Shown: in pieces, positions 3,076-55,081 of the stretch
Numbering within the stretch: the first letter of the stretch is position 1
Layout of the letters: every line of letters starts with the position of its first letter
Assembly (NCBI GenBank): GCA_009778065.1
Contig: WRKM01000005.1
Location: 26,267-90,266, forward strand
DNA: 64,000 nt
DNA from: Oscillospiraceae bacterium
GTDB lineage: Bacteria; Bacillota; Clostridia; Oscillospirales; Ruminococcaceae
Direction: 5' to 3'
The notes under the pieces: generated by a model
Seen by the model: only the letters and a program-made list of their open reading frames with translations
Told to the model about the DNA's origin: nothing
Databases searched by the model: none
Made by a program: the position numbers and the translations under genes

Positions 3076-4251
3076 ATGTTAAATTTCAGCTTTTGTTCTC
3101 CGACGCATTTTGAATTCGGTAAGGGTACGGAAAAGGAAACAGGTGCGTTGATAGCGCGTTTCGGGGGTAAAAAAATCTTGCTTCATTACGGCGGCGGTTC
3201 GATTAAAAAATCGGGACTGTACGATAGGGTGACGGCGAGTTTACGCGAGAGCGGTTTGGCGTTTGTGGAGCTTGGCGGTGTAGTGCCGAATCCGGAAAGC
3301 GGATTGGTCTATAAGGGTATCGAGCTGTGCAGAAAAGAAAATGTAGATTTTGTACTTGCGGTCGGCGGCGGCTCGGCTATTGATTCGGCTAAAGCGATTG
3401 CGGCGGGTGCGGTTTACGATGGCGATTTTTGGGACTTTTTCGAGGGTAAAACTATCGAAAAAGCTCTGCCCATAGGTGTAATCCTGACGCTTGCGGCGGC
3501 GGGAAGCGAAGGCTCGTCAAACTCCGTTGTAACAAACGAAAAAACCAACGAAAAGCGCGGTTGTTACGGTGAGGTTATTCGTCCTCTCTTTTCGATTCTT
3601 AATCCGGAGCTTACGCAAACTTTACCGCACTATCAAACGGCGGCGGGTGCGACCGATATTATGGTACACGTTATTGAGCGGTATTTTTCAAACACAAAGG
3701 AAGTTGAGATAACCGACCGCCTTTGTGAAGCCGTGTTGAAAACCATGATTTATGAAACTCCGCGTGTCCTCGAAAATCCCGACAATTACGAAGCCCGCGC
3801 CAACATAATGTGGGCGGGCATGGTAGCGCATAATAATCTCTGCGGCGTAGGGCGAGAGCAGGACTGGGCAAGTCATGGGATGGAACACGAGTTGTCTTCG
3901 TTTTACGGTGCAACGCACGGAGCGGGTTTAGCGGTTATCTGTCCCGCATGGATGAAGTTTGTGAGTCGTGTTAATCCCGCTAAATTCATACAATTCGCCG
4001 TCCGCGTCTGGAATTGTCAGATGAATTTCGAGCATCCGGAAATAACTGTACGCGATGGGATTGAACAATTCGAGAATTTTCTGCGTAAAATCGGTATGCC
4101 GTCCTCGATAAAGGAATTCGGTGCTAAAGAAGAGGATATTCCGAAATTGGCGCGTCATATCGGTAGGGTAAGCGAAAGCGAAAAGAACTTCGGTGGATAT
4201 GTAAAGTTGAATTTAAGTGACGTTGAAGAAATCTACAGATTGGCGTTATAA
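3076..4251 (+). CDS. Iron-containing alcohol dehydrogenase (NADH-dependent butanol dehydrogenase type)
   Basis: YGGGSIKKSG, LAVGGGSAIDSAK, H..EHELS and HGAGLA metal-binding motifs. Confidence 0.92.
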   Translation: MLNFSFCSPTHFEFGKGTEKETGALIARFGGKKILLHYGGGSIKKSGLYDRVTASLRESGLAFVELGGVVPNPESGLVYKGIELCRKENVDFVLAVGGGSAIDSAKAIAAGAVYDGDFWDFFEGKTIEKALPIGVILTLAAAGSEGSSNSVVTNEKTNEKRGCYGEVIRPLFSILNPELTQTLPHYQTAAGATDIMVHVIERYFSNTKEVEITDRLCEAVLKTMIYETPRVLENPDNYEARANIMWAGMVAHNNLCGVGREQDWASHGMEHELSSFYGATHGAGLAVICPAWMKFVSRVNPAKFIQFAVRVWNCQMNFEHPEITVRDGIEQFENFLRKIGMPSSIKEFGAKEEDIPKLARHIGRVSESEKNFGGYVKLNLSDVEEIYRLAL

Positions 4252-4254
4252 ATT

Positions 4255-4716
4255 TTACAGCACCTTTAAAATCGGATAGCTGTGAACATAATCTTTAATA
4301 TGCGCGGGGTATTTTAAAACCCGCGCTTTTATTTTATCAGTAAGTTGTGAACCGACAAACTCCGAAAGTTCACAAAGCGTTTTTTCACCTACTTTTTTGC
4401 ATAACGGGGAGACGGTAATCACAATAAACTCACCGAGCTTCATAGCGCGAAAAGGCCAGAGCTTACAATCAAAAGGGCGGTCGTCCCCGAGCTTGCAACC
4501 GTTTTTATCCAAAGCGGGGCAAAAATATAAGCCCTTTTCGTCTCGGTTTAACTTAAAAACGCGGTTATCTCCGATTAAATTAAAATCGTATTTACCGCTT
4601 ATTAATTGCGCCAAATCATCGTCAATTACGGGGACTTCCCAGAACTCGCCCTCATAAAAGTTACAACAGAGCTTACATTCGGCACAGTCATTTTCACTTA
4701 AAAGCCTATCAAGCAT
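4255..4716 (-). CDS. YkgJ-family cysteine cluster protein (putative Zn or Fe-S binding)
   Basis: CxxCxxCC near the N-terminus, then CPAL...C...RPFDCKLWPF. Confidence 0.75.
   Translation of the reverse strand: MLDRLLSENDCAECKLCCNFYEGEFWEVPVIDDDLAQLISGKYDFNLIGDNRVFKLNRDEKGLYFCPALDKNGCKLGDDRPFDCKLWPFRAMKLGEFIVITVSPLCKKVGEKTLCELSEFVGSQLTDKIKARVLKYPAHIKDYVHSYPILKVL
4302..4335 (+). terminator. Terminator of the ADH gene, lying inside the convergent YkgJ CDS
   Basis: GCGCGGG (4302-4308)/CCCGCGC (4320-4326) followed by TTTTATTTT. Confidence 0.7.
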
Positions 4717-42399: not shown

Positions 42400-42963
42400 C
42401 TACAGCTTCCCGATTAGGTCAAGACTGGGTTTTAAAGTTTTTTCGCCCGGCTTCCACTTTGCGGGACATACCTGGTCGCCGTGTTCTGCGACGAACTGCG
42501 CGGCTTGCACCTTGCGAAGCAATTCGGAGGCGTTGCGTCCGATACCGAGGTCGTTAATTTCATATGCAACGATTTTCCCCTCGGGATTCACTATAAAAGT
42601 ACCGCGAAGCGCGAGTCCCGCTTCGGGGATAAGGACGTCAAAATCCTTTGAAAGTGCGTGAGTCGGGTCGGCAAGCATGAAATATTTAATTTTCTTGATT
42701 GTGTCTGACGCATCATGCCACGCCTTATGTACAAAATGGGTGTCGGTAGATACGGAGTAAATCTCGCATCCTATTTCTTTAAAACTGTCATGTATGTCGG
42801 CTAAATCGCCGAGTTCTGTAGGACATACAAAGGTAAAGTCAGCGGGGTAGAAAACAAATACACCCCATTTACCCAAAACGTCCTGCTTAGTTATCGCGCT
42901 GAACTGACCGTCTGCGAAAGCTTGTACGTTGAAATCGCCGATTTCTTTTCCGATAAGAGCCAT
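42400..42963 (-). CDS. ahpC: Alkyl hydroperoxide reductase subunit C (2-Cys peroxiredoxin)
   Basis: FYPADFTFVCPTE and VCPAKW; real start ATG 42963 after AGGAGG. Confidence 0.97.
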   Translation of the reverse strand: MALIGKEIGDFNVQAFADGQFSAITKQDVLGKWGVFVFYPADFTFVCPTELGDLADIHDSFKEIGCEIYSVSTDTHFVHKAWHDASDTIKKIKYFMLADPTHALSKDFDVLIPEAGLALRGTFIVNPEGKIVAYEINDLGIGRNASELLRKVQAAQFVAEHGDQVCPAKWKPGEKTLKPSLDLIGKL

Positions 42964-42997
42964 GATGAATCCTCCTGTTGTCTTTATTTTTTTAAGT

Positions 42998-43033
42998 AAA
43001 AATGACTGCCGCACAATGAAAAAAGTGCGGCAG
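42998..43033 (-). terminator. Terminator-like hairpin just upstream of the ahpC RBS
   Basis: Minus strand CUGCCGCAC-(10 nt)-GUGCGGCAG followed by UCAUUUUU. Confidence 0.6.
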
Positions 43034-43200
43034 CCGCGAACCGCTAACGCCGTGGCATGGTACATAGAACCCGCGAAACCGCAGGGTGGGTAAAAATCGC
43101 CTGTAGGTTCACGCTCCCTTCGTCCATCGGCAAAAACGAGTTTTCGCCGACGGGAGGTCTGCAATCCGCTGACAGAGCTGAAATCCCATATTATAGGTGT
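43034..43200 (-). ncRNA. Structured RNA, 6S RNA (ssrS)-like candidate or ahpC leader
   Basis: Minus strand CCCACCCUGC...GCGGGUUC...CACGGC resembles the 3' strand of Firmicutes 6S RNA as I recall it; promoter-like elements upstream and terminator downstream; no SD-supported ORF. Confidence 0.45.
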
Positions 43201-43269
43201 TGGATTATAATAACCATACTTTAACGCACGAAGCAGTCAATAAGCTGAAAGCCGCAACCGGAGCCGCAA

Positions 43270-43584
43270 CTAAAAGCCAAACTCGTCCGCGAGTTCTTCA
43301 AAACGCGCTAAGAACATATCACCGATTTTGTCGGAAAGAGCTTCGTCATCAACAGTTGAAAGAAAATATTCGCCGTCTTCTTCAATCTCTTGTAAAACAA
43401 TGAATTCCGTTTCGGCGTCTTCGTCCTCGTCCTCTTCGTCTGCATCTTCATCATAAAGGACAAGTGCAAGGTAGTTAACATTCTCATAGGTCAGCGCGTC
43501 AACTATCTCAAATTGCTCGCCGTCAAGCTCAACTAAATCGGGTTCGTATTCCTCAAAATCAGTTTTTTCTTCAAATTCAGCCAT
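43270..43584 (-). CDS. DUF1292 domain protein (acidic)
   Basis: FEIVDALTYENVNYLAL, highly acidic, LSTVDDE. Confidence 0.85.
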   Translation of the reverse strand: MAEFEEKTDFEEYEPDLVELDGEQFEIVDALTYENVNYLALVLYDEDADEEDEDEDAETEFIVLQEIEEDGEYFLSTVDDEALSDKIGDMFLARFEELADEFGF

Positions 43585-43614
43585 GTTTGTCCCTTTCGTT
43601 ATTTTGTTATGTTA

Positions 43615-43643
43615 ATTATACAATACATTTAAGGCTTTGTCAA
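43615..43643 (-). promoter_or_regulatory. Consensus sigma70 promoter of DUF1292 gene
   Basis: Minus strand TTGACA, 17 bp, TATAAT. Confidence 0.88.
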
Positions 43644-43741
43644 TAAGAAATACTGCATTTTTCCCCAATATTTTGAAAAAAACACGTCCATAACTGTCAG
43701 AAGTTATAAATAATTCTGAAAAAAATTGTGCAATATAACTG

Positions 43742-43770
43742 TTGACAGTTGTGTATAATTATGGTAAAAT
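43742..43770 (+). promoter_or_regulatory. sigma70 promoter driving the large non-coding unit
   Basis: TTGACA (43742-43747), 17 bp, TAAAAT (43765-43770); additional TATAAT at 43754 and 43770. Confidence 0.82.
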
Positions 43771-43776
43771 ATAATC

Positions 43777-44475
43777 ACGGAAGAAATTTCAAGAAAGTTA
43801 GACCCCGAAGGCGGAAAAAGCGGTAAAGAGTAACGATGGTGAAATTACCGTAAAGCTGTGGGAAAAGCGAGTAGGGAATGGCGCCGAGGCAGGGTCGGAG
43901 CGAGCGGTTGAACGAAGCTCTTAAAGTCACAGCAGGGTAGGCTGCGAGAAAGACCAAGATACATAGTTCTATACGATTAAGAGGATTATGTAAATATGAC
44001 CGAGAAAAGGAGGCGAGTCCAATGGATGCGGAAATCAAAGTGCCGAGCGTAGGTTGCGGCTCGCGCGACGATTAAGTTACATGTGAAATCGCAGATAAGC
44101 CGGAAAGCCCAAGCGGTGGGAAGGTTTAACGGATTTAAGGTCGGTACTTTTACCGGGATTATGCTTAAACGGACACGAACGCAATTACGTCGGCGATAAG
44201 GCTATAGGTGGGTGTCCTGTGTCGAAAGCAGGATATAACCGCAGAGGGTGTAAAGAAATCCGAAGCGGAAACCGCAAATAGGCTTGAAAATTTATATACC
44301 GGCAATTTTATGACAGCGCTTATGGACTTTTGGGAATAAAGTCTTTGAAGCGAGCCGGATTAACCGCCGAGGCGTTTAAATAAAAAATGTAAAGTTTCAA
44401 GTAACCCTTCTCGGAGGAGAAGAAAAATTAATATACTAACCCGCGCAGTCAAATTTAAAACTGCGCGGGTTTCAG
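43777..44475 (+). ncRNA. Candidate large (about 700 nt) structured ncRNA of unassigned family
   Basis: Bounded by a promoter and a 12-bp hairpin, no long + strand ORF, purine-rich, many helices (see findings); the next gene has its own promoter. Confidence 0.7.
44438..44473 (+). terminator. Terminator-like hairpin closing the large RNA
   Basis: Perfect 12-bp stem AACCCGCGCAGT (44438-44449)/ACTGCGCGGGTT (44460-44471); U tail is short. Confidence 0.7.
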
Positions 44476-44552
44476 CGTTACAGAATATTTTCGGCTATAA
44501 TTTAAGTTATCGTAAAATTCTTGAAAATCAAGTTAATATTTTCAAAAAACTA

Positions 44553-44581
44553 TAGCATTTTTTTAAAAAATATGTTATACT
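44553..44581 (+). promoter_or_regulatory. Extended -10 promoter of dnaD-loader operon
   Basis: TAGCAT, 17 bp, TGn-TATACT. Confidence 0.6.
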
Positions 44582-44623
44582 GACTTTAAAATGCACAAAA
44601 TCGAAAGGCGGTAAGTAAAGAAA

Positions 44624-45634
44624 GTGGGTTTTAAACTCAATCTCGGGGCATGGAATGACGTTTTCGCCGTTCCGTCGGTTGTCGTAGATAATTACATAAA
44701 ATTGGCAGGCGGAAACAATATTAAAGTCTTACTGTATTATTTAAAAAACGCGGGACGGGTTCTCTCGGTAGATGAAGTTTCACAAAAAACAGGCGTAAAC
44801 CCCGACGACATACAAGATGCCCTGCTTTTCTGGGAGCAGACGGGACTGCTGTGCTTTAATAAAAACGATATAGTTCCCGGCAATATACCGTTAAATAATG
44901 AAAATCCCTATATATCCGAGCATGAGCAAATCACCGTAAAACCGGAAAAAACAGAAACAACGCTTCGTTCTATAGCGGAAAGTCGAGTTCAACTCGAAAG
45001 AGAACCTCGATTTTGCCCTAAAGAAATAGCCCATTCTGTACGAGAAAACAAAGGCATGGACTTTCTTTTCAAGGGTTGCGAGAAAATTTTCGGCAGAACC
45101 CTCAAGCATAATGAGCAAAATTCACTCATGCTTATTACCGAGGAGACGGGAATTCCGGCAGAATGTACGCTTATGCTTGTTGACTATTGCTTTTCCATAG
45201 GGAAGCCGACCCCTGCCTACATGAAAGCGATAGCGGTAGATTGGCTCGAACGCGGGATAATGACTATGAGTGCGGTAGAGGACGAAATAAAAGTATTAAG
45301 AGAAATAAACAGCCTTGAAAACAGGTTAAAAAGGCTTTTCGAGATGAATAGCGCGTTTTCAAAAACACAAAAGGATTTCATAAAAAAGTGGAGCAACTTG
45401 GGTTATGGTGAAGAAATGCTCTCGGAAGCATACCAAATTACGCTCGACCAAACGGGTAAAGCGGCCTTTCCGTATATGAATAAAATTATAACCAAATGGA
45501 GCGAGAACGGCATAAAAACTAAAGAACAGCTCGAAAAATCACAAAAAGCCTACAATGAAAAGAATCAAAGCGCATCCGAAGCAAAATCATCTTTTGATTT
45601 GAATTTAATATCGAAGCTGATTAATGAGAAATAG
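44624..45634 (+). CDS. DnaD/DnaB_2 domain replication protein
   Basis: N-terminal FAVP..VVDNYIK, two DnaD-like repeats (YM.AIA.DW, FPYMNKIITKW). Confidence 0.88.
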   Translation: MGFKLNLGAWNDVFAVPSVVVDNYIKLAGGNNIKVLLYYLKNAGRVLSVDEVSQKTGVNPDDIQDALLFWEQTGLLCFNKNDIVPGNIPLNNENPYISEHEQITVKPEKTETTLRSIAESRVQLEREPRFCPKEIAHSVRENKGMDFLFKGCEKIFGRTLKHNEQNSLMLITEETGIPAECTLMLVDYCFSIGKPTPAYMKAIAVDWLERGIMTMSAVEDEIKVLREINSLENRLKRLFEMNSAFSKTQKDFIKKWSNLGYGEEMLSEAYQITLDQTGKAAFPYMNKIITKWSENGIKTKEQLEKSQKAYNEKNQSASEAKSSFDLNLISKLINEK

Positions 45635-45649
45635 GCGGTATGTAAAAGT

Positions 45650-46651
45650 ATGTATAACCAACCTAATCAAAGCTTTTACGAGTGTGCGGAGGCTGAAATA
45701 AAACGCCGCCGCGAAGTAAATACCGAAAAGCTGAATCTACGTAAACGAGAAATAGAAAAAATAATCCCCGAATACAAAGCGATTCGTCTCGAACTCATGA
45801 AAACGGGAGAGAGGCTTTACAGGATTATAATGTCTGCGGAAGATGCTGCAAAAAAGCTCGCAAGGCTTGAACGCGAAAACATAACAGCACAAGAGGCGAT
45901 TAAAGTATTACTCGTCGGAAACAAATACGCCCCTGACTACTTAGACGAGATTTATACCTGCCAAAAGTGCCGAGACACCGGGGTTTATCAAAATCGTCGT
46001 TGCTATTGCTTTAAAGAAATTGTAAAAAGACTTGCGGCTGACGAGCTTAATGCCTCTGCGCCGATAAAACTCAGTAGCTTTGAGACATTCGACATAAATC
46101 TGTACCCCGACCGTACCGATACCGATACGGGTATTAACATAAAAAATAAAATGATGCGAAACTTTAAGACATGCAAGGATTTTGCCGATAATTTTCATTT
46201 ACCGTGTACGGGTATCCTTATGTTCGGGAAAACGGGGCTTGGCAAGACGCATCTTTCTCTCGCCGTTGCAAAAACCGTGATTTTAAAGAATCACAGCGTT
46301 ATTTACGGCTCCGCACCCGACTTGCTCCGTAAAATTGAAAAGGAGCATTTCAGCCGCACGGCAGGCGACGACCGCTCAGATACGGCGGGACTGCTTCAAG
46401 AAGCGGATTTATTGATTTTTGACGACCTCGGTGCGGAATTTGAGAGCAGGTTCTATGTTTCTGCTTTCTACAATTTACTGAACTCTCGTATTAACGCCGG
46501 TTTACCGCTTATAATAAACACGAACCTGACAGAAAAAGAGTTGAAAGAACGCTACGGAGACCGTATTATGTCACGGCTTCTTACAATGGAGTGTTTAAAA
46601 TTTATAGGCGACGACATAAGAGTCGGTAAAAAATACGGAATCAGTGTGTAA
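45650..46651 (+). CDS. DnaC/DnaI-like helicase loader ATPase
   Basis: Zn motif CQKC.DTG...RCYC, Walker A GKTGLGKT, Walker B LLIFDDLG. Confidence 0.9.
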   Translation: MYNQPNQSFYECAEAEIKRRREVNTEKLNLRKREIEKIIPEYKAIRLELMKTGERLYRIIMSAEDAAKKLARLERENITAQEAIKVLLVGNKYAPDYLDEIYTCQKCRDTGVYQNRRCYCFKEIVKRLAADELNASAPIKLSSFETFDINLYPDRTDTDTGINIKNKMMRNFKTCKDFADNFHLPCTGILMFGKTGLGKTHLSLAVAKTVILKNHSVIYGSAPDLLRKIEKEHFSRTAGDDRSDTAGLLQEADLLIFDDLGAEFESRFYVSAFYNLLNSRINAGLPLIINTNLTEKELKERYGDRIMSRLLTMECLKFIGDDIRVGKKYGISV

Positions 46652-46672
46652 AATTTTTGAAAGGTTATAAAA

Positions 46673-47437
46673 ATGGAAAAAAAATTAAAACTCTATGGGT
46701 TTAACAACCTCACAAAATCCCTAAGCTTTAATATCTACGATGTTTGCTACGCAAAAACCGAGCGGGAGCAACGGGATTATGTCGCCTATATTCATCAGCA
46801 GTATAACTCCGAGCGTCTGACAAATATACTGACCAGTGTCACAGACATGATAGGAGCAAAGGTGCTTAATATATCCCGCGCAGACTATGAGCCGCAGGGT
46901 GCGAGCGTAACAATTCTGATTGCCGAGGAGAGCATGGTAAAGAATTTGGCGGGCGACACGGTAATAGGGCATCTCGATAAAAGCCATGTAACGGTTCATA
47001 CTTACCCCGAATATCACCCCGAGACGTTTTTGGCGACATTCAGGGTTGATATTGATGTTACTACCTGCGGTGAAATCACGCCGTTATCGACGCTTGATTA
47101 TCTAATCGGCAGTTTTGATTCGGATATAATCACAATGGATTATCGTGTACGCGGCTTTACAAGAGAGATAGAGGGGAAGAAGCTGTTTATCGACCACAAA
47201 ATTACGAGTATACAGGAATATATCGACCCTGCCACGATGAACAAGTACGATGCGGTGGATGTGAATGTCTATCATTCAAACATCTTTCATACAAAAATGC
47301 TTATTAAAGATATAGACCTGCAAAATTATCTCTTCAACGCAGATGTATACGAAATCCCACCTAAAACAAGACTTGGTATTATGAATAATTTAAGACAGGA
47401 GATGATTGAAATTTTTTCGGGGAGTAATATATACTGA
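46673..47437 (+). CDS. speD: S-adenosylmethionine decarboxylase proenzyme
   Basis: [37 protein letters not shown]. Confidence 0.95.
47404..47433 (+). repeat. 30-bp direct repeat, copy 1
   Basis: GATTGAAATTTTTTCGGGGAGTAATATATA, identical to 48277-48306. Confidence 0.95.
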
Positions 47438-48282
47438 TGGGTGAAAACAAAAAAAATAAAATAAAGATTTTTGAAGAAAATCGTGTCCGCGCCGTATGGG
47501 ATGAAGAAGCGGAGAAATGGTGGTTTTCTGTTGCCGATATTTGCTCTATTCTATCTGAAAGCTCTGATGGGCGTAAGTATTGGAGCGTGTTAAAGACGCG
47601 CCTTAAAAAAGAAGGAAGCGAGTTGACTACAATTTGTAGTCAACTGAAAATGGAGGCGGCAGATGGTAAAATGTACCTCACTGACGTTGCCGATACCGAG
47701 CAGGTTTTACGGCTTATTCAGTCAATTCCGAGCAAAAAAGCCGAACCTTTCAAGATGTGGCTTGCGAGAGTCGGGAATGAACGCATAGACGAAATCGTTG
47801 ACCCGGAGCAGTCAATAGACCGCGCTATACATAATTACCGCCGTCTTGGTTACAGCGAAAACTGGATTAATCAAAGAATAAAGTCAATAGAGGTTCGCAA
47901 GGCGTTAACGGACGAATGGGAAGCAAGCGGCGTTAGAGAAAGAGAAGAATACGCAGCACTGACAGATTTAATGAGCAAGACATGGAGCGGAATGACAACC
48001 GGGGAATATAAAAAATACAAAGATTTGAAAAAAGAAAATTTGCGTGATAATATGACTAATACAGAACTTATCCTTAATATGTTGGCTGAAGTCACAGCAA
48101 CCGAAATATCAATAATTGAACAACCCACAGGATTTAACGAAAGTGCCAAAGTAGCCGAGCGTGGTGCAAGTGCCGCTAAGGTCGCGCGTAATCAAATCGA
48201 AAAAGAAACAGGAAAATCTGCCATAAGTAGATTAAACACAAAAAATATAGGTCAGATAAAATTGATAGAGGAAACCGATTGA
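47437..48282 (+). CDS. Bro-N domain protein (phage antirepressor-like DNA-binding protein)
   Basis: VRAVWDEEAEKWWFSV.D, RKYWSVLK.RL, IQSIPSKKAEPFK.WLA. Confidence 0.88.
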   Translation: MGENKKNKIKIFEENRVRAVWDEEAEKWWFSVADICSILSESSDGRKYWSVLKTRLKKEGSELTTICSQLKMEAADGKMYLTDVADTEQVLRLIQSIPSKKAEPFKMWLARVGNERIDEIVDPEQSIDRAIHNYRRLGYSENWINQRIKSIEVRKALTDEWEASGVREREEYAALTDLMSKTWSGMTTGEYKKYKDLKKENLRDNMTNTELILNMLAEVTATEISIIEQPTGFNESAKVAERGASAAKVARNQIEKETGKSAISRLNTKNIGQIKLIEETD

Positions 48283-48306
48283 AATTTTTTCGGGGAGTAA
48301 TATATA
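48277..48306 (+). repeat. 30-bp direct repeat, copy 2
   Basis: Identical to 47404-47433; provides the GGGGAG SD for speA. Confidence 0.95.
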
Positions 48307-49752
48307 TTGAATCTTAACCAAAATCGTGCGCCTATAAAAGACGCGCTTGAAGAATTTGCTTCGCGGCGCGTGGTACCCTTCGATGTACCGGGGCATAAAC
48401 GCGGCAGAGCCAACAAGGAGCTTACTGACTTCCTCGGTAAGCAGTGCATGAGTATAGACGTTAATTCAATGAAGCCGCTTGATAATATCTGTCATCCCGT
48501 TTCGGTAATAGCTGAGGCGGAAAAGCTTGCGGCGGCGGCTTTTAATGCGAGGAACGCTTTTTTCATGGTAGGCGGAACAACTTCTTCTGTTCAGGCTATG
48601 ATTTTTGCAACGACAAAATGCGGGGATAAACTTATTCTTCCGCGAAATGTCCACAGAAGCGTAATTAACGCACTTGTTCTAAATGGCGCGGTGCCTGTCT
48701 ATGTAAATCCGAAAGTCAACAGAGGCTTAGGCATTTCTCTTGGAATGTCGCTCGAAGATGTCAAAAAGGCAATCGCTGAAAATCCCGATGCTAAAGCGAT
48801 TTTGGTTAATAACCCGACATATTACGGCATCTGTTCAAACTTAAAAGAAATCTGTAGAATAGCCCATGAAAATAACATGCTCGTCCTTGCAGACGAGGCA
48901 CACGGTACACATTTTTATTTCGGTGAGAATTTACCCGTCTGCGCTATGAACGCAGGGGCAGATTTCGCCTCGGTAAGTATGCACAAATCAGGCGGTTCTC
49001 TCACGCAAAGCTCGTTTTTATTGACGGGCGAAAACGTAAGCGAGGGTTATGTCAGGAAGGTGATTAACCTTACACAAACGACTTCCGGAAGCTATCTTTT
49101 AATGAGTAGTCTTGATATTTCACGTAAGAACTTAGCCCTCAACGGAAAAGAAATATTTAAAAAAATAGCCGAACTCGCCGAATATGCGCGTGATGAAATA
49201 AATCAAATAAGCGATTATTATGCCTACTCGAAAGAAATAATAAACGGAGACTCTGTTTTTGATTTTGATATTACGAAGCTTGCGATAAATACGCTTGAAA
49301 CAGGGCTTGCGGGGATTGAGGTTTATGACTTATTGCGTGATGATTATGATATTCAAGTTGAATTCGGAGACATAGGAAACATTTTAGCCTACATTTCGGT
49401 AGGAGACAGAGAACGAGATTTAGAGCGTTTAGTCGGCGCGTTATCGGAAATCCGCCGCCGCTTCAAACGCCCCGGGACAGGTATGCTGACGCAAGAGTAT
49501 ATAGAACCCATTGTTGAAAAAAGCCCTCAAGAGGCGTTTTACGCATCGAAGACCTCATTGCCTCTAAAAGAAACAATAGGAAGAGTGTCATGCGAATTTG
49601 TAATGTGCTACCCGCCGGGGATTCCGGTTTTAGCCCCCGGAGAGAGCATAACCGCAGATATTATCGAATATATAATGTATGCGAAAGAAAAAGGATGTTT
49701 TATGATGGGTCCCGAAGACGAAGCGATAGAGAGAATTAATGTCATACACTGA
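48307..49752 (+). CDS. speA: Orn/Lys/Arg decarboxylase (PLP-dependent), probable arginine decarboxylase
   Basis: FDVPGHK, GGTTSSV, DEAHG, SMHKS, TTSGSY, YPPGIP; TTG start. Confidence 0.88.
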   Translation: MNLNQNRAPIKDALEEFASRRVVPFDVPGHKRGRANKELTDFLGKQCMSIDVNSMKPLDNICHPVSVIAEAEKLAAAAFNARNAFFMVGGTTSSVQAMIFATTKCGDKLILPRNVHRSVINALVLNGAVPVYVNPKVNRGLGISLGMSLEDVKKAIAENPDAKAILVNNPTYYGICSNLKEICRIAHENNMLVLADEAHGTHFYFGENLPVCAMNAGADFASVSMHKSGGSLTQSSFLLTGENVSEGYVRKVINLTQTTSGSYLLMSSLDISRKNLALNGKEIFKKIAELAEYARDEINQISDYYAYSKEIINGDSVFDFDITKLAINTLETGLAGIEVYDLLRDDYDIQVEFGDIGNILAYISVGDRERDLERLVGALSEIRRRFKRPGTGMLTQEYIEPIVEKSPQEAFYASKTSLPLKETIGRVSCEFVMCYPPGIPVLAPGESITADIIEYIMYAKEKGCFMMGPEDEAIERINVIH

Positions 49753-49785
49753 TTCATTTTGCGCATAAAGTATTGAGGAGTAGAT

Positions 49786-50199
49786 ATGTGGATTTTATAT
49801 GCTTTTCTTGCCGCATTTTTTGCCGCGCTTACTTCTATATTAGCCAAAATGGGTATCGAGAACGTCAATTCTAATTTAGCGGTTGCAATCAGAACGGTCG
49901 TTGTGTTAATAATGGCGTGGGGTATGGTTTTCATCACAGGCAAGCAAACCGAGATAGTTAATATCACACAAAAAAGCTGGCTCTTTTTGGTTCTTTCGGG
50001 ATTCGCCACGGGTTTGTCCTGGTTGTTTTTCTTCAAAGCTTTGCAAGAGGGCGAAGCCTCAAAAGTTGTCCCGATTGATAAATTCAGCGTCGTTATAACC
50101 ATGTTCCTTGCGGTAATAATTTTAAACGAGACCCTAACTCCCAAAACAATTATAGGGGGAGTCCTCGTAACAGTCGGTACTCTTTTGTTTGTTTTGTAG
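49786..50199 (+). CDS. EamA/DMT-family small transporter
   Basis: FAALTSILAK, AIRT, ASKVVPIDK; about 5 TMs. Confidence 0.9.
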   Translation: MWILYAFLAAFFAALTSILAKMGIENVNSNLAVAIRTVVVLIMAWGMVFITGKQTEIVNITQKSWLFLVLSGFATGLSWLFFFKALQEGEASKVVPIDKFSVVITMFLAVIILNETLTPKTIIGGVLVTVGTLLFVL

Positions 50200-50216
50200 T
50201 ACATGAGGAGGTCAAT

Positions 50217-51080
50217 ATGGACTTATGGTTCAGCGAATATCACGCAGAAGGCGTGCGGCTTTCAATAAAAGTCGCAAAACAGCTCCACTCAGAGCAGAGT
50301 GACTTTCAACAAATAGACGTGTTTGATTCAGAGGAGTTCGGGCGTTTTTTGACCCTTGACGGGTTTATGATGTTGACTGAGCGAGATGAGTTTATATATC
50401 ACGATATGATAGTCCATGTTCCGTTGGCTGTCAATCCCGAAATCCGAAAGGTGCTTGTAATAGGCGCGGGCGATGGCGGAGCGGTCAGGGAACTGTGCAG
50501 ATATAAGTATATCGAAAAAATTGATTTGGTGGAAATAGACCAACGGGTGGTTGAAATAAGTAAGCAATACCTGCCGTCTACAGCATGTAGCTTCGATGAT
50601 GAGCGTCTAAGCATATACTATCAGGACGGTCTTAAATTCATCAGGAAATGCTATGATTTTTATGATTTAATTATAGTGGATTCGACTGACCCCTTCGGTC
50701 CGGGTGAAGACCTGTTTACAAAAGAGTTTTACGGAAACTGTTTTAAGGCTTTAACCGATTACGGAATCATGGTGAATCAGCATGAAAGCCCGTTTTATAA
50801 AAATGACGCAAACGCTATGCAACGCGCCCATAAAAGAATTACGGAAACATTTCCGATTAGTAAAGTTTATCAGGCGCATATTCCGACATATCCGTCGGGA
50901 CACTGGCTTTTCGGATTCGCTTCTAAAAAATTGCATCCGATTAACGACTTAAATCCTGCCTCGTGGAACAGCCTGGGTTTAGATACAAGGTATTATAACA
51001 CACAGTTGCATTACGGATGTTTTGCACTGCCGACTTATGTGGAGGAGATGTTGCGAAATGTTGAAAATGAAAAAGAATAG
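50217..51080 (+). CDS. speE: Polyamine aminopropyltransferase (spermidine synthase)
   Basis: LVIGAGDGG, VEID, DSTDP.GP. Confidence 0.95.
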   Translation: MDLWFSEYHAEGVRLSIKVAKQLHSEQSDFQQIDVFDSEEFGRFLTLDGFMMLTERDEFIYHDMIVHVPLAVNPEIRKVLVIGAGDGGAVRELCRYKYIEKIDLVEIDQRVVEISKQYLPSTACSFDDERLSIYYQDGLKFIRKCYDFYDLIIVDSTDPFGPGEDLFTKEFYGNCFKALTDYGIMVNQHESPFYKNDANAMQRAHKRITETFPISKVYQAHIPTYPSGHWLFGFASKKLHPINDLNPASWNSLGLDTRYYNTQLHYGCFALPTYVEEMLRNVENEKE

Positions 51081-51915
51081 CGACACCTTTATCGGGTGTA
51101 CCTGTGAGTATGATGAAGCGTCTGTAGTGCTTTTCGGCGCGCCTTATGACGGTACGACCTCAAACCGTCCGGGAGCGCGTTTCGGAGGTGCGGCTATCAG
51201 GCGCGAGTCGCAAGGACTCGAAACTTTCAGCCCGTATCTTGAGCGTGATTTGTCGGAGCTGAAAGTCTTCGACGGCGGGGAATTAGAATTATCTTTCGGT
51301 GCGCCTGTCCCTGTGCTTAAAACTATTTACAACTACACAAAGCAAATTATCAACAGCGTAAAAATCCCCGTCATGCTCGGCGGTGAGCATTTAGTCACCC
51401 TCGGGGCTGTCCGTGCAATTGTTGAAAAATATTCCGATTTGGTTATAATCGACTTTGACGCACATATAGATTTACGCGATGAATACATGGGGCAAAAGCT
51501 CTCGCATGCCTCGGTAATTCGCAGATGTTATGAATTAACGGGAGACGGCAGGATTTTTCAATTCGGTGTTCGTTCAGGCGATAAAGCGGAGTTTGAATGG
51601 GGAAAAGAAAAAGTTTTTACGCAGAGATTCACGTTAGACGGACTTGAGAGCGTGATAAAAAAGATAAACAAGAAGCCTGTATATTTCACGATTGATTTAG
51701 ATGTACTCGATAGCGCGGTGTTACCCGCGACAGGCACTCCGGAAGCGGGCGGAATCAGCTTTAATGAGATTTTGGACGGAATAAAAAAAGTATGCAGGTT
51801 AAATATTGTAGGTTGCGACCTGACCGAGCTTTCACCGCCTTACGACCATACAGGAGCTTCAACGGCGACAGCTTGCAAGGTTCTGCGGGAATTACTTTTA
51901 AGTCTTAATGTGTAA
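51058..51915 (+). CDS. speB: Agmatinase
   Basis: GGEHL, DAHIDLR, DLDVLD, TGTPE.GG; start ATG 51058 after GGAGGAG. Confidence 0.93.
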   Translation: MLKMKKNSDTFIGCTCEYDEASVVLFGAPYDGTTSNRPGARFGGAAIRRESQGLETFSPYLERDLSELKVFDGGELELSFGAPVPVLKTIYNYTKQIINSVKIPVMLGGEHLVTLGAVRAIVEKYSDLVIIDFDAHIDLRDEYMGQKLSHASVIRRCYELTGDGRIFQFGVRSGDKAEFEWGKEKVFTQRFTLDGLESVIKKINKKPVYFTIDLDVLDSAVLPATGTPEAGGISFNEILDGIKKVCRLNIVGCDLTELSPPYDHTGASTATACKVLRELLLSLNV

Positions 51916-51927
51916 AGGTAAAAGAAT

Positions 51928-52722
51928 ATGTCAAAGAAAAGAATTGCAGGCGGAGAGTATTATTTTCTGTTTTCAATGACCGTGCTTTTTCGCGTGGCTT
52001 TTTTCCTTTTATCCGGCGATGTGTTTGACAGGCTTTTTGAGATTGACAGGCAAAACAGCTTTATCGGAATCTTCACCGAGTACGCCGCACAGTACAATGA
52101 AATCATGTACGACCTCGGTATATCGGACTTTTTGTTGTTTGAATTATTGATAGTCATAATTATCGGATTCCATTATAAAGGGAAAGAACGGTTTTTCAAA
52201 ACTCTGTCGATTAGTTGGACATGCTTGTTTACAGTACTTGTTTCGCATCTGCTGATGATTTTTTTATATAAACCGGGAGGACTTAATCTCGGGACAGCCT
52301 ATATAATAGCACTCAGAATTGCAGAGCCGTTAATTATTTATATTATTCCTGCCGGAGTATTTATCGCACTTATTTTTTTCGTAAAGCCGAAGAAGATAAG
52401 CTTGTATATAAAAAACTCACTCCTTAAACCGACAAGCATGATATTCTTATTCTTAAGCTTTGCTTTGGTTGCGATTTATACCGTATCACTTGTAATAATA
52501 AACCGCAGGCTTTCTTACCTGAAAGACGCTGTGTTTCTGAATCCGATTTATTTGGACGAGCTTTACGATTTGGTTGATTTAATTGCGGATATAGAAATCG
52601 CTTATTTCGCATTGAATTCAATTCTTCTGTGCGGGATTATGATGTGCTTTTATAGAGGTGTGAGGATAACCGATAAAACATTAAAACTAAAATACAAATA
52701 TAAAAAGAGAGGTAAAAATAAC
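51928..52722 (+). CDS. Multi-TM hypothetical segment with no stop codon, in frame with downstream dehydrogenase
   Basis: 265 hydrophobic codons continue without a stop into ATG 52723. Confidence 0.6.
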
Positions 52723-53928
52723 ATGAACGGAAGATTATTAATTATCGGCGCGGGCGGCGTTGCGAGTGCGGCTTTTGCAAAATGCTGTCAGAATGACAAG
52801 GTGTTTAAAGAAATCATGCTCGCCAGCCGCACAAAATCTAAGTGTGACGAACTCGTTACCAAATGGGAGAGTACGACAAGCGCGAAACTTTTTACGGAAC
52901 AGGTTGACGCGGATAACACAGCAGAATTAATAACGCTGATAGAGAGATTTAAGCCCGACGTTGTCTTAAACCTTGCACTGCCTTATCAGGACTTGACAAT
53001 TATGGATGCCTGCCTTGCTACAAAGACGCATTATGCAGATACCGCGAATTATGAGCCGCTCGATACCGCAAAGTTCGAGTATAAGTGGCAATGGGCGTAC
53101 AAAGAACGCTACGAAGAAGCGGGTATAACCGCACTCCTCGGAAGCGGATTCGACCCCGGTGTAACAGGCGTTTTCTGTGCCTATGCGATGAAACATTATT
53201 TTGACGAGATTCATTATATAGACATTCTCGATTGTAACGGCGGCGACCACGGTTATCCGTTCGCAACTAATTTTAATCCCGAAATTAATATCCGCGAGGT
53301 CAGCGCGAACGGACGTTACATGGAAAATGGTATATGGATTGAAACAAAACCCATGGAAATAAAGCGTGAGTATGATTTTGAAGAAGTCGGAAAAAAAGAT
53401 ATGTATCTGCTCTATCATGAAGAGCTTGAATCTCTCGCAAAGAACATTAAAGGTTTAAAACGTATTCGCTTTTTTATGACGTTCGGACAGAGCTATCTTA
53501 CTCATTTGAAATGCCTCGAAAATGTAGGTATGACCTCGATTGAGCCGATTAACTATGAAGGTAAAGAGATAGTACCGATTCAATTCTTAAAAGCCGTGCT
53601 ACCCGACCCCGCGTCGCTCGGACCGCGTACAAAGGGAAAAACCAACATCGGCTGTATTATGCAGGGCATAAAAGACGGCAAGCCTTTAAATTATTATGTC
53701 TATAATATCTGCGACCATGAGGAGTGTTATAAAGAAGTAGGGACACAGGCAATTTCGTACACAACGGGCGTTCCGGCTATGATTGGCGCAATGCTCTTAA
53801 TGAATGGCGAGTGGCGCAAACCGGGGGTTTATAACACTGAAGATTTTGACCCTGACCCGTTTATGGACGCGCTTAATAAGTGGGGCTTACCGTGGAAAGA
53901 GAGCTTTGAACCTATTTTAGTGGAGTAA
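52723..53928 (+). CDS. Carboxy(nor)spermidine synthase (saccharopine dehydrogenase family)
   Basis: IIGAGGVA, NLALPYQDL, GSGFDPGVT, NFNPEINIRE; own SD GAGGT 9 nt upstream; next to nspC. Confidence 0.93.
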   Translation: MNGRLLIIGAGGVASAAFAKCCQNDKVFKEIMLASRTKSKCDELVTKWESTTSAKLFTEQVDADNTAELITLIERFKPDVVLNLALPYQDLTIMDACLATKTHYADTANYEPLDTAKFEYKWQWAYKERYEEAGITALLGSGFDPGVTGVFCAYAMKHYFDEIHYIDILDCNGGDHGYPFATNFNPEINIREVSANGRYMENGIWIETKPMEIKREYDFEEVGKKDMYLLYHEELESLAKNIKGLKRIRFFMTFGQSYLTHLKCLENVGMTSIEPINYEGKEIVPIQFLKAVLPDPASLGPRTKGKTNIGCIMQGIKDGKPLNYYVYNICDHEECYKEVGTQAISYTTGVPAMIGAMLLMNGEWRKPGVYNTEDFDPDPFMDALNKWGLPWKESFEPILVE

Positions 53929-53935
53929 TAGAAGA

Positions 53936-55081
53936 ATGAATAAATGGCTTAAAAGCTTAAAAACCCCCTGCTATGTTATTAACGAAGCGGCTTTAATAAA
54001 TAATCTTAAAACCCTCAGCGATTTAGAAATCAGCACAGGTTGCAAGGTTTTACTTGCTCAGAAAGCGTTTTCGGCTTTTGCGTTTTATCCGTTGGTTGCA
54101 AAATACATCAGCGGAACAACGGCAAGCGGAATTTTTGAAGCCCGTCTCGCTCATGAGGAAATGCAGAACAAGGAAAACCATGTCTACTCCCCTGCATATA
54201 AAGAAGACGAACTTAAAGAACTCGTTAAAATCTGCGACCATATTATTTTTAACTCGCCTGAGCAGTGGCAGAAATTTAAAAAGCTTATCCCCGAAAACGT
54301 AAGCGCGGGACTTCGCATTAACCCCGAATTAAGCACACAGGGCGGCGGAATCTATGACCCCTGCGCTCCTTTTTCGAGGCTCGGTTCTACATTGAAAAAT
54401 ATACAGGGCAAAGACCTCGGCGGAATTGAGGGACTGCATTTTCATACGCTGTGTGAACAGGATTCAGACGCCCTCGAAGTAACGCTTGATGAAGTGATTA
54501 AGAAATTCGGGGATTTGTTTCCCATGCTGAAATGGGTGAACCTCGGCGGAGGTCATCATATAACCCGCGAGGGTTATGACATACGGCGGCTTGAAAAGTG
54601 CATAGAGCGTGTTATGAAATACGGGTTGGACGTGTATATTGAGCCGGGGGAGGCTGTAGCGCTTAACGCCGGTTGGCTCGCCGCGAGCGTGCTTGATATT
54701 ATTAATCATGTTGGTGACGACGAGCGGCGTATGATTCTTGCGGTTTTAGACGCTTCAGCGGCATGTCATATGCCCGATGTGCTTGAAATGCCTTATACTC
54801 CTAAGATTATTGGCGCAAAAGAAAAAGGTGAAGGGAAATTTAATTATCGTTTTACGGGCAACACCTGCCTTGCCGGTGATATAATAGGTGATTACAGCTT
54901 TGAATATGAGTTGAAAGAGGGCGATAAGCTTTTGTTTTGCGACATGGCAATATACTCAATGGTTAAAAATAACACCTTCAATGGTATTCCGCTTCCGTCA
55001 ATTGCAGTTTTACGGGAAAACGGCGAACTTGAAACAATAAAGCATTTCGGATATTCTGACTTTAAGAACAGATTATCATAG
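53936..55081 (+). CDS. nspC: Carboxynorspermidine decarboxylase
   Basis: LLAQKAFS, LHFHTLCEQ, GGGHH, EPGEA, HMPDVLEMPY. Confidence 0.95.
   Translation: MNKWLKSLKTPCYVINEAALINNLKTLSDLEISTGCKVLLAQKAFSAFAFYPLVAKYISGTTASGIFEARLAHEEMQNKENHVYSPAYKEDELKELVKICDHIIFNSPEQWQKFKKLIPENVSAGLRINPELSTQGGGIYDPCAPFSRLGSTLKNIQGKDLGGIEGLHFHTLCEQDSDALEVTLDEVIKKFGDLFPMLKWVNLGGGHHITREGYDIRRLEKCIERVMKYGLDVYIEPGEAVALNAGWLAASVLDIINHVGDDERRMILAVLDASAACHMPDVLEMPYTPKIIGAKEKGEGKFNYRFTGNTCLAGDIIGDYSFEYELKEGDKLLFCDMAIYSMVKNNTFNGIPLPSIAVLRENGELETIKHFGYSDFKNRLS

Follow-up and report, generated by a model that had tools for sequence, protein, structure and literature searches.

The window analysed here, a 64,000-nucleotide stretch of contig WRKM01000005.1 from an Oscillospiraceae bacterium (GCA_009778065.1, positions 26,267 to 90,266 of the forward strand), carries a Bro-N gene within a polyamine operon, between speD and an Orn/Lys/Arg decarboxylase gene of the ‘speA’ type, and the last codons of speD are found on both sides of it as direct repeats. 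Comparison with relatives shows that the speD–speA junction in this termite-gut-type Oscillospiraceae lineage is a cargo hotspot resembling the minimal mobile elements, and one relative carries a duplication of this speD tail on both sides of another cargo. We give about an even chance to a homology-anchored import, in which a donor speD tail was brought in together with the cargo while the recipient's own tail was retained. The hotspot and the insertion-duplication footprint are of known kinds; new is their combination, as a variant of these kinds.

As the earlier note had stated, the exact 30-mer GATTGAAATTTTTTCGGGGAGTAATATATA occurs at 47404–47433 and at 48277–48306, with a period of 873 bp. 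Ungapped extension lengthens the repeat to 34 bp (47404–47437 and 48277–48310) and passes through the TGA stop codon of speD, with a C/T difference at position 31 as the sole mismatch. No third copy was found in the 64 kb with up to three mismatches tolerated, and the 30-mer occurred in none of 100 dinucleotide-preserving shuffles (chance expectation 0). Copy 1, with 47404–47433 as its exact part, comprises the last 11 codons of speD (46673–47437, + strand, 254 amino acids) and its TGA, and the ATG of the Bro-N gene (47437–48282, +, 281 amino acids) starts on the A of this TGA (TGATG overlap). Copy 2 (+ strand) is the displaced speD tail, inside which the Bro-N open reading frame (ORF) terminates at GAT TGA; the remnant TAT TGA follows and overlaps the TTG start codon of speA (48307–49752, +, 481 amino acids) as TTGA. 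The alignment of the speA N-terminus with relatives begins at the first codons. A GGGGAG Shine–Dalgarno sequence for the next gene is present on the + strand of both copies, at 47419–47424 in copy 1 (read directly, 12 nt before the Bro-N ATG) and at 48292–48297 in copy 2 (9 nt before the speA TTG). The earlier description of a single-gene cassette whose duplication keeps translation of the operon intact thus holds, as the insert fits the Bro-N ORF exactly and both Bro-N and speA receive a tail copy bearing a Shine–Dalgarno sequence.

The 839 bp of non-duplicated insert (47438–48276, +) consist entirely of Bro-N coding sequence, with a GC content of 41.2% compared to 41.6% and 43.7% in the flanks. 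Terminal inverted repeats were not found in the insert, the termini of which agree at best at 15 of 40 positions, nor was a convincing promoter or terminator of its own. Neither was any inverted repeat, palindrome or attC-like structure seen within or across the repeat copies, and an Rfam scan of 43000–52000 identified no known RNA element in the repeat. Within approximately 5 kb on each side, where the neighbors are AhpC, DUF1292, DnaD-like, DnaC-like and polyamine genes, no integrase or transposase was identified, in agreement with the earlier note. Both copies (47406–47435 and 48279–48308) also fit a sigma-70-like TTGAAA-N18-TATAYT pattern (TATACT or TATATT) at 10 of 12 positions. This candidate promoter was taken as a chance match, with 20 such matches in the region against 15 expected and a −10 box overlapping the next start codon.

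The window is a metagenome assembly, and the repeat and the insert could have been created by a mis-join. Such an artefact is very unlikely, because two assemblies made with different pipelines, possibly from shared reads, have the structure in common: it is present with both repeats in JGI assembly 3300002469 (three mismatches over 8765 bp, all outside the repeats) and also in the ENA MEGAHIT assembly ERZ27257348. Moreover, the ORFs are unbroken and their coupling is exact, a read is longer than the 30-bp repeat, and the same architecture was found independently in the relative L164, described below.

In order to compare the junction between relatives, 12 loci were obtained from ten SpeD proteins with 85–95% amino acid identity, all from Oscillospiraceae metagenome-assembled genomes (MAGs) whose sample and isolate names match those of termite-gut MAG sets; a homolog search with speD had given Oscillospiraceae MAG matches at 88–95% amino acid identity. 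Between speD and the decarboxylase gene, the loci show eight or more different inserts, and one empty site. speD is followed by a RelB/YafQ toxin–antitoxin pair in L164, an N-terminally truncated Bro-N homolog with two small ORFs, a DUF4258 remnant and a zinc-finger antitoxin in L165, a 195-amino acid membrane ORF in L166, a CBM_4_9 protein in L167, a CBM/LRR protein with DUF4258 and an antitoxin in L168, a CBM/LRR protein and a 330-amino acid ORF in L169, a 122-amino acid ORF in L170, two DUF3137 genes and LemA in L171/L172, AIM24 in L175/L176, and an LRR_5 protein in L177. In L173/L174 the site is empty, with speD leading directly into the decarboxylase gene, which provides the comparison with an empty site proposed in the earlier note. 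No mobility genes were identified in the hotspot cassettes, whose Pfam families are Bro-N, RelB/YafQ, CBM_4_9, LRR_5, DUF4258, DUF3137, LemA and AIM24, or which match no family. Eight other cargo variants at this site are without a second copy of the speD tail.

The Bro remnant in L165 is the closest relative of the window Bro-N over the region it covers (84% amino acid identity). The left junction, TAC-TGA-TG, is common to both loci, and the right junction is found in the window only. Since the Bro gene is as diverged at the DNA level (77% identity between the window and L165) as the flanking speD (81%) and speA (77%), Bro-N probably already stood behind speD before the two lineages split. 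Several cassettes appear stacked at the speD–speA site of L165 (L165:930–2290; ENA ERZ27257320 k141_2610602): the first 71 Bro-N codons are replaced by 114 bp in which the palindrome TGACAAATTGTCA occurs twice, and downstream of the Bro remnant come a 57-amino acid ORF, a DUF4258 toxin gene that is broken, and a zinc-finger antitoxin gene, which is intact and directly adjoins speA.

In L164, the toxin–antitoxin pair lies between 36-bp duplications of the speD tail (3730–3765 and 4441–4476), which begin 2 nt upstream of the repeat boundary in the window. Two sites distinguish the copies (TTT/TTC and TGA/TAA), and each copy is a natural allele: copy 1 equals the speD tail of L171/L172 and copy 2 that of L169/L177, each at 36 of 36 positions. 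A promoter (TTGACA...TATACT) with a palindromic operator begins 5 nt past copy 1 and the toxin stop codon lies 3 nt before copy 2, so that the cassette is again cut down to a minimal unit. After copy 2 comes a small ORF of 26 codons (MKNFKKREQFIKACFNNYPYDEDCHA; L164:4476–4556), whose start forms a TAATG overlap with the displaced speD stop and which itself overlaps the start of speA (ATGCTTAA). This ORF may serve speA as a leader or in coupling, or may be left over from an older cassette. Copy 2, the small ORF and speA together look like the original junction of the recipient.

The Bro-N protein matches Pfam Bro-N (PF02498, E=4e-12, residues 17–110), and over its full length the PADLOC candidate model PDC-S13 (E=3e-127, residues 5–274), which is a candidate defence model only, as well as phrog_15286 of unknown function (E=2e-121). 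The NCBIfam scan gave no match. No nuclease domain (GIY-YIG, HNH, LAGLIDADG and similar) was detected, Bro-N being the only Pfam match, and a PDB sequence search returned only a spurious carbohydrate-binding-module match. An AlphaFold2 model (predicted local distance difference test, pLDDT, 72) consists of a small alpha/beta, winged-helix-like N-terminal domain and a helical C-terminal domain, for which the best Foldseek match in the PDB, and the only meaningful one, is DdrC, a DNA-binding protein of the DNA damage response in Deinococcus (E ~1e-4, template modelling (TM) score 0.36–0.48). The model suggests that the Bro-N protein is a putative DNA-binding passenger, with no sign of a nuclease, transposase, recombinase or catalytic domain. 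Literature searches found no mention of PDC-S13 and nothing relevant on Bro-N with direct repeats or target-site duplication, and a paper on ‘embedded’ defence genes mentions neither Bro-N nor duplications.

The family is large, with more than 8,000 homologs at 72–83% identity in a set clustered at 90% and 870 clusters at 50% identity (E<=1e-30), and extends over Spirochaetes, Proteobacteria, Bacteroidota, Firmicutes, candidate phyla radiation (CPR) bacteria and archaea. Few members were found among phage records (4 fragmentary matches in 50,697), plasmids (9 full-length matches in 72,556) and viral contigs (22 loci in 2.9 million), and a phage origin of the Bro-N gene was rejected for this reason. 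Among the immediate neighbors of 131 scanned proteins, approximately 100 different Pfam families were found on each side, including restriction-modification (some of type I), Fic and PIN, as well as tRNA synthetases, epimerases and oxidases; most neighbors are co-oriented, with short or negative gaps. Nucleotide similarity between Bro-N copies in different contexts typically extends from the ATG to 20–60 nt short of the stop codon. Based on these comparisons, Bro-N behaves as an ORF-sized passenger gene that appears to have been embedded repeatedly in unrelated operons. In three genome MAG loci (L019, L052 and L054) the start of Bro-N abuts or overlaps the neighboring gene, with gaps of approximately −4 to 0 nt as judged from the match start, and in L019 and L052 so does the stop. 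The embedding is ORF-exact as in the window, and no flanking repeat was detectable at these three loci.

Similar duplications in the flanks of Bro-N homologs, which the earlier note proposed to look for, were sought in 147 loci by comparing the upstream flank with the downstream one without gaps (score threshold >=18). About 7% of the loci have flanking duplications of host sequence, 22–264 bp long. Among genome loci 8 of 77 reached the threshold against 0 of 124 shifted controls, and among metagenome loci 3 of 70 against 2 of 46, one of the three being a CRISPR array. The duplicated pieces are 36 nt from the 3′ end of serS (L075), a stop codon together with a terminator (L057), hsdS from its ribosome-binding site through codon 6 (L010/L110), 59 bp located just before the Bro-N start and again before a helicase gene, by eye a promoter region (L077), the upstream region and first 25 codons of a regulator gene (L069), and codons 1–90 of a radical-SAM gene (L016). 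The repeat in L069 may in part be a multi-copy intergenic element. In each case the duplication leaves one complete gene and one truncated copy, and the duplicated piece is often exactly the signal for expression that would have been lost to the insertion, whether a ribosome-binding site, a start codon, a promoter-like region or a terminator. At most loci of this family no repeat is detectable, and the flanking duplication is therefore an occasional by-product and no requirement.

Two Bro-N loci deserve separate mention. L119:1–2109 (contig JGI24702J35022_10055731) has a Bro-N (PDC-S13) homolog at 356–1210 inside a CRISPR array, with repeats GTCGCGCCCCATGCGGGCGCGTGGATTGAAAC spaced 65–68 bp on both sides and degenerate copies next to the gene; its flanking repeat was rejected as a duplication, since it consists of CRISPR repeats. 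L059:3434–5813, from a Chitinophagaceae MAG, has two Bro-N copies, a 107-amino acid N-terminal fragment and a full gene approximately 1.5 kb downstream. The N-termini of the two copies are nearly identical and a 61-bp repeat lies on either side of the full copy, which suggests a partial tandem duplication of larger extent.

Six independent coding repeat pairs (window, L164, L016, L069, L010 and L075) were used to analyze the differences between repeat copies by codon position. The third position carries 28 of the 42 mismatches (binomial p=1e-5 against one third), and the codon differences comprise 22 synonymous and 12 non-synonymous changes. An in-place duplication would leave a truncated copy that is expected to decay neutrally; the 270-bp truncated copy in L016 is free of stop codons and frameshifts. 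Because the mismatches concentrate at synonymous third positions, the copies diverged as functional alleles, probably as parts of working genes in different genomes that were later joined, one of them having travelled with the cargo. In the window, the only mismatch is the synonymous TAC (copy 1) versus TAT (copy 2), each state being present in relatives. Both copies carry the derived, lineage-specific variants GAA and ATA, and the duplication in the window is thus younger than the split from L165.

The duplicated segment is also the part of speD that is most conserved at synonymous sites (0.74 versus 0.52 ± 0.08; among the top 3 of 244 segments scanned). As the whole gene is only 77–81% identical at the nucleotide level between lineages, the tail is the best homology anchor in speD. 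The last 33 nt (47402–47434; compared over L164–L177) show this synonymous conservation across approximately ten lineages that are otherwise about 20% diverged, whichever gene follows. Conservation irrespective of the following gene points to some constraint beyond coding, which may be a ribosome-binding site, a recombination anchor or other.

From these footprints we infer the following order of events for the import. Bro-N would have arrived on DNA of a close relative that already carried it right behind speD (TAC-TGA-TG). The left end would have been joined by homologous recombination within speD or its unusually conserved tail, and the right end, at the Bro-N 3′ terminus, by an illegitimate joint 34 nt upstream of the speD stop of the recipient; with the joint in this position, the recipient's tail would be kept downstream of the cargo. 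A single crossover of an 873-bp circle consisting of the speD tail and Bro-N would be an equivalent route. The product would read donor tail, Bro-N, recipient tail, where copy 1 and Bro-N would be donor DNA, and copy 2 and speA the original overlapping junction of the recipient. Because the ribosome-binding site of speA lies inside the speD tail, the retained copy would keep speA translated, while the donor copy would supply the ribosome-binding site of Bro-N and its stop/start coupling to speD. Having no promoter or terminator of its own, Bro-N is probably transcribed with the polyamine operon and translated by coupling to speD. Excision by recombination between the 30-bp exact repeats is plausible and would yield a clean junction and an 873-bp circle. 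At an excised or empty site, GGGGAGTAATATATAYTGAATCTTAACC would join directly to the upstream speD, and the circle would show the junction GAGGAAACC-GATTGAAATTTT...TATATACTGATGGGTGAA.

Several observations weigh against such an import. The copies in the window differ at one site only, and the allele argument rests mainly on the other loci; with GAA and ATA shared by both copies, the donor must have been very close, or the duplication must have arisen in situ. Neither a donor, an empty allele from the same species nor a mosaic speD was found among the available relatives, which are approximately 20% diverged; a scan of speD against them gave identities of 65–90% throughout, with no donor tract visible. 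No microhomology was demonstrated at the right-hand joint, where the C-terminal tails of Bro-N vary between homologs. More than 90% of the Bro-N loci are without a repeat, and the excess over controls is weak in the metagenome set. Finally, random illegitimate joining does not predict the near-identical left boundaries in the window and L164.

This near coincidence of boundaries keeps an att-like, site-specific reading alive, though no integrase was found near the site and no attP in the viral contigs. The ~35-bp speD tail would here serve as a docking site at which integrase-less cassettes are inserted and excised by a recombinase acting in trans, with parallels in cis-mobilizable elements (CIMEs) and integron cassettes. 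One segment duplicated around two cargos with left boundaries 2 nt apart, cassettes trimmed to minimal functional units and a tail unusually conserved at synonymous sites are all consistent with docking, and a promoterless ORF beside a toxin–antitoxin pair with its own promoter recalls chromosomal integron cassettes. Against this, no integrase gene lies near the site, a degenerate attP search with the speD-tail pattern gave no match in the 2.9 million viral contigs of IMG/VR, the repeat lacks any palindromic or attC-like structure, the eight further cargo variants have a single tail, and Bro-N relatives elsewhere are flanked by unrelated host repeats of 22–264 bp. Docking is therefore doubtful in our judgement. 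We attach a similarly small probability to its more far-reaching form, in which promoterless defence-candidate genes (PDC-S13) and toxin–antitoxin pairs would enter housekeeping operons at stop/start overlaps as a hitherto unrecognized class of integrase-free ‘operon-docking cassettes’, with the ~35-bp tail bearing the Shine–Dalgarno sequence as a reusable docking and excision site and the duplication as part of the mechanism; if true, the locus would be a chromosomal, operon-embedded analogue of an integron array. A true duplication of the target in situ, by a staggered break with nicks ~34 nt apart, fill-in and ligation of a foreign fragment, selection having kept the events that spared the speA ribosome-binding site, would explain why the copies in the window share lineage-specific variants and are one base apart. 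It would also fit the expression signals covered by the duplications, namely the Shine–Dalgarno sequence in the window, start codons in L010/L110, a promoter-like region in L077 and a terminator in L057. However, it does not account for the third-codon-position bias and synonymous excess between copies or for L164 copies equal to two natural alleles, the lengths of 22–264 bp indicate no fixed ruler, and no nuclease or transposase is encoded nearby; we hold this explanation, too, to have only a slim chance. The target-site duplication by insertion machinery envisaged in the earlier note is probably not what took place, given the two natural alleles in L164 and the third-position mismatch bias in the six pairs.

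Replication template switching, in which the nascent strand left at the speD stop, copied Bro-N elsewhere and re-annealed 34 nt upstream, yields flanking duplications of variable length without a recombinase, and the junctions lie at short shared motifs (TGATG and GATTGA) that may be microhomologies. It is nevertheless rather unlikely, as both copies would derive from one template, which leaves the allele-like divergence unexplained, and the C-terminal tails of Bro-N, where a microhomology would be sought, vary between homologs. The earlier note had also raised the scar of a larger element, such as a prophage or an integrative and conjugative element with the speD 3′ end as its target, of which decay would have left a single gene between attL and attR. 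Direct repeats at the 3′ ends of genes are typical of integrative elements, and Bro-N/antirepressor genes and toxin–antitoxin pairs are common among their accessory genes. Such a scar is quite unlikely, because hardly any room is left between cargo and repeats in either the window or L164 (0–3 nt): all 839 non-duplicated bases are coding, the start and stop codons overlap the repeats, and L164 is equally tight. The tail is found in no viral contig, and the Bro family is rare in phages.

The minimal mobile elements of Neisseria, for instance MMEpheST, are alternative small cassettes between conserved genes (PMC1797815, citing Saunders & Snyder 2002). As that account presents them, they share with the speD–speA site cassettes without mobility genes, often of restriction, defence or toxin–antitoxin type, exchanged presumably via the conserved flanks. 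Unlike these elements, the site lies inside a translationally coupled operon of an uncultured gut anaerobe, and two lineages here show a 34–36-bp duplication of the tail of the upstream gene. To our knowledge, flanking tail duplication is no part of the definition of a minimal mobile element. Homology-facilitated illegitimate recombination and Campbell-type insertion-duplication are laboratory phenomena in transformable bacteria, where one homologous anchor combined with an illegitimate joint, or a circle crossover, can leave the anchor on both sides as a donor and a recipient copy. Those processes are experimental, whereas the one proposed here is read from natural footprints alone. Mobile ORFs that replace the end of the gene they invade, such as the insertion in the mitochondrial atp6 of Allomyces, encode homing endonucleases. 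The arrangement is alike in having a donor 3′ end on the host gene, an inserted ORF and the displaced resident 3′ end as a repeat, but differs in that the Bro-N protein has no nuclease domain, on which ground a free-standing homing endonuclease gene was rejected. With CIMEs and integron cassettes the locus shares small integrase-less units that are bounded by repeats, have one orientation and comprise promoterless ORFs as well as toxin–antitoxin pairs with their own promoters; it differs from them in that a search around the site revealed neither an integrase nor attI or attC, that the repeat consists of coding sequence of the host, and that most alleles are without a second copy. An integron gene cassette was rejected based on the lack of an attC-like palindrome and of an integrase gene near the site. 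A transposon or insertion sequence with target-site duplication was likewise rejected, there being no transposase in the insert or within approximately 5 kb, no terminal inverted repeats and no fixed length of duplication (34 bp here, 22–264 bp elsewhere). Other loci with PDC-S13/phrog_15286 genes lie in other operons, including type I restriction-modification, whereas the gene described here is located in a housekeeping polyamine operon and not in a defence system.

Upstream of speD, the left anchor of the hotspot (Pfam AdoMet_dc, S-adenosylmethionine decarboxylase, E=1e-13), the window has a DnaD/DnaB_2-like gene (44624–45634, +; Pfam DnaB_2, E=1.5e-29) and a DnaC/IstB-like helicase-loader gene (45650–46651, +; Pfam IstB_IS21/Bac_DnaA). 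This pair is also found upstream of speD in L164, L166–L171 and L177. An IS21 reading of the IstB-like gene was rejected, the gene being in relatives the conserved DnaC-like partner of the DnaD-like gene; both are core genes, and there is no IS21 element. speA, the right anchor (Pfam OKR_DC_1, E=1e-69), is followed by the remainder of the polyamine operon (49786–55081, +). Based on the ORF list and Pfam on the same contig, it consists, all on the + strand, of EamA (49786–50199), spermidine synthase (50217–51080), a member of the agmatinase/arginase family (51022–51915) and saccharopine/carboxynorspermidine dehydrogenase (51928–53928), as well as an ORF of ~381 amino acids (53936–55081) that was named putative carboxynorspermidine decarboxylase from reading of the sequence. 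The dehydrogenase ORF was called at 666 amino acids and has a hydrophobic, membrane-like N-terminal extension of ~265 amino acids before the usual GAGGV NAD-binding start; this may reflect a fusion or an error in the start call. Elsewhere in the window, no recombinase is among the matches listed for the top 25 Pfam families. The sole match in the Rfam scan was a full-length, sub-threshold match to 6S RNA at 43034–43242 (− strand; 30.4 bits, gathering score 46.4, E=0.0035), located immediately upstream of the AhpC-like gene. The long ORF with a TTG start at 42400–43164 probably extends too far, into this match.

The spread of single genes without mobility functions across phyla and into essential operons, which stay functional, is poorly documented outside a few transformable pathogens. 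The locus described here, together with 150-plus related loci, offers a readable footprint of such spread, in which a piece of the donor flank would travel with the cargo and the recipient copy would stay behind as a direct repeat. If general, synonymous-biased repeat pairs could serve in metagenomes to recognize recently imported genes, the polarity of each import and its donor, and this mode of import would explain the frequent embedding of candidate defence genes in other operons.

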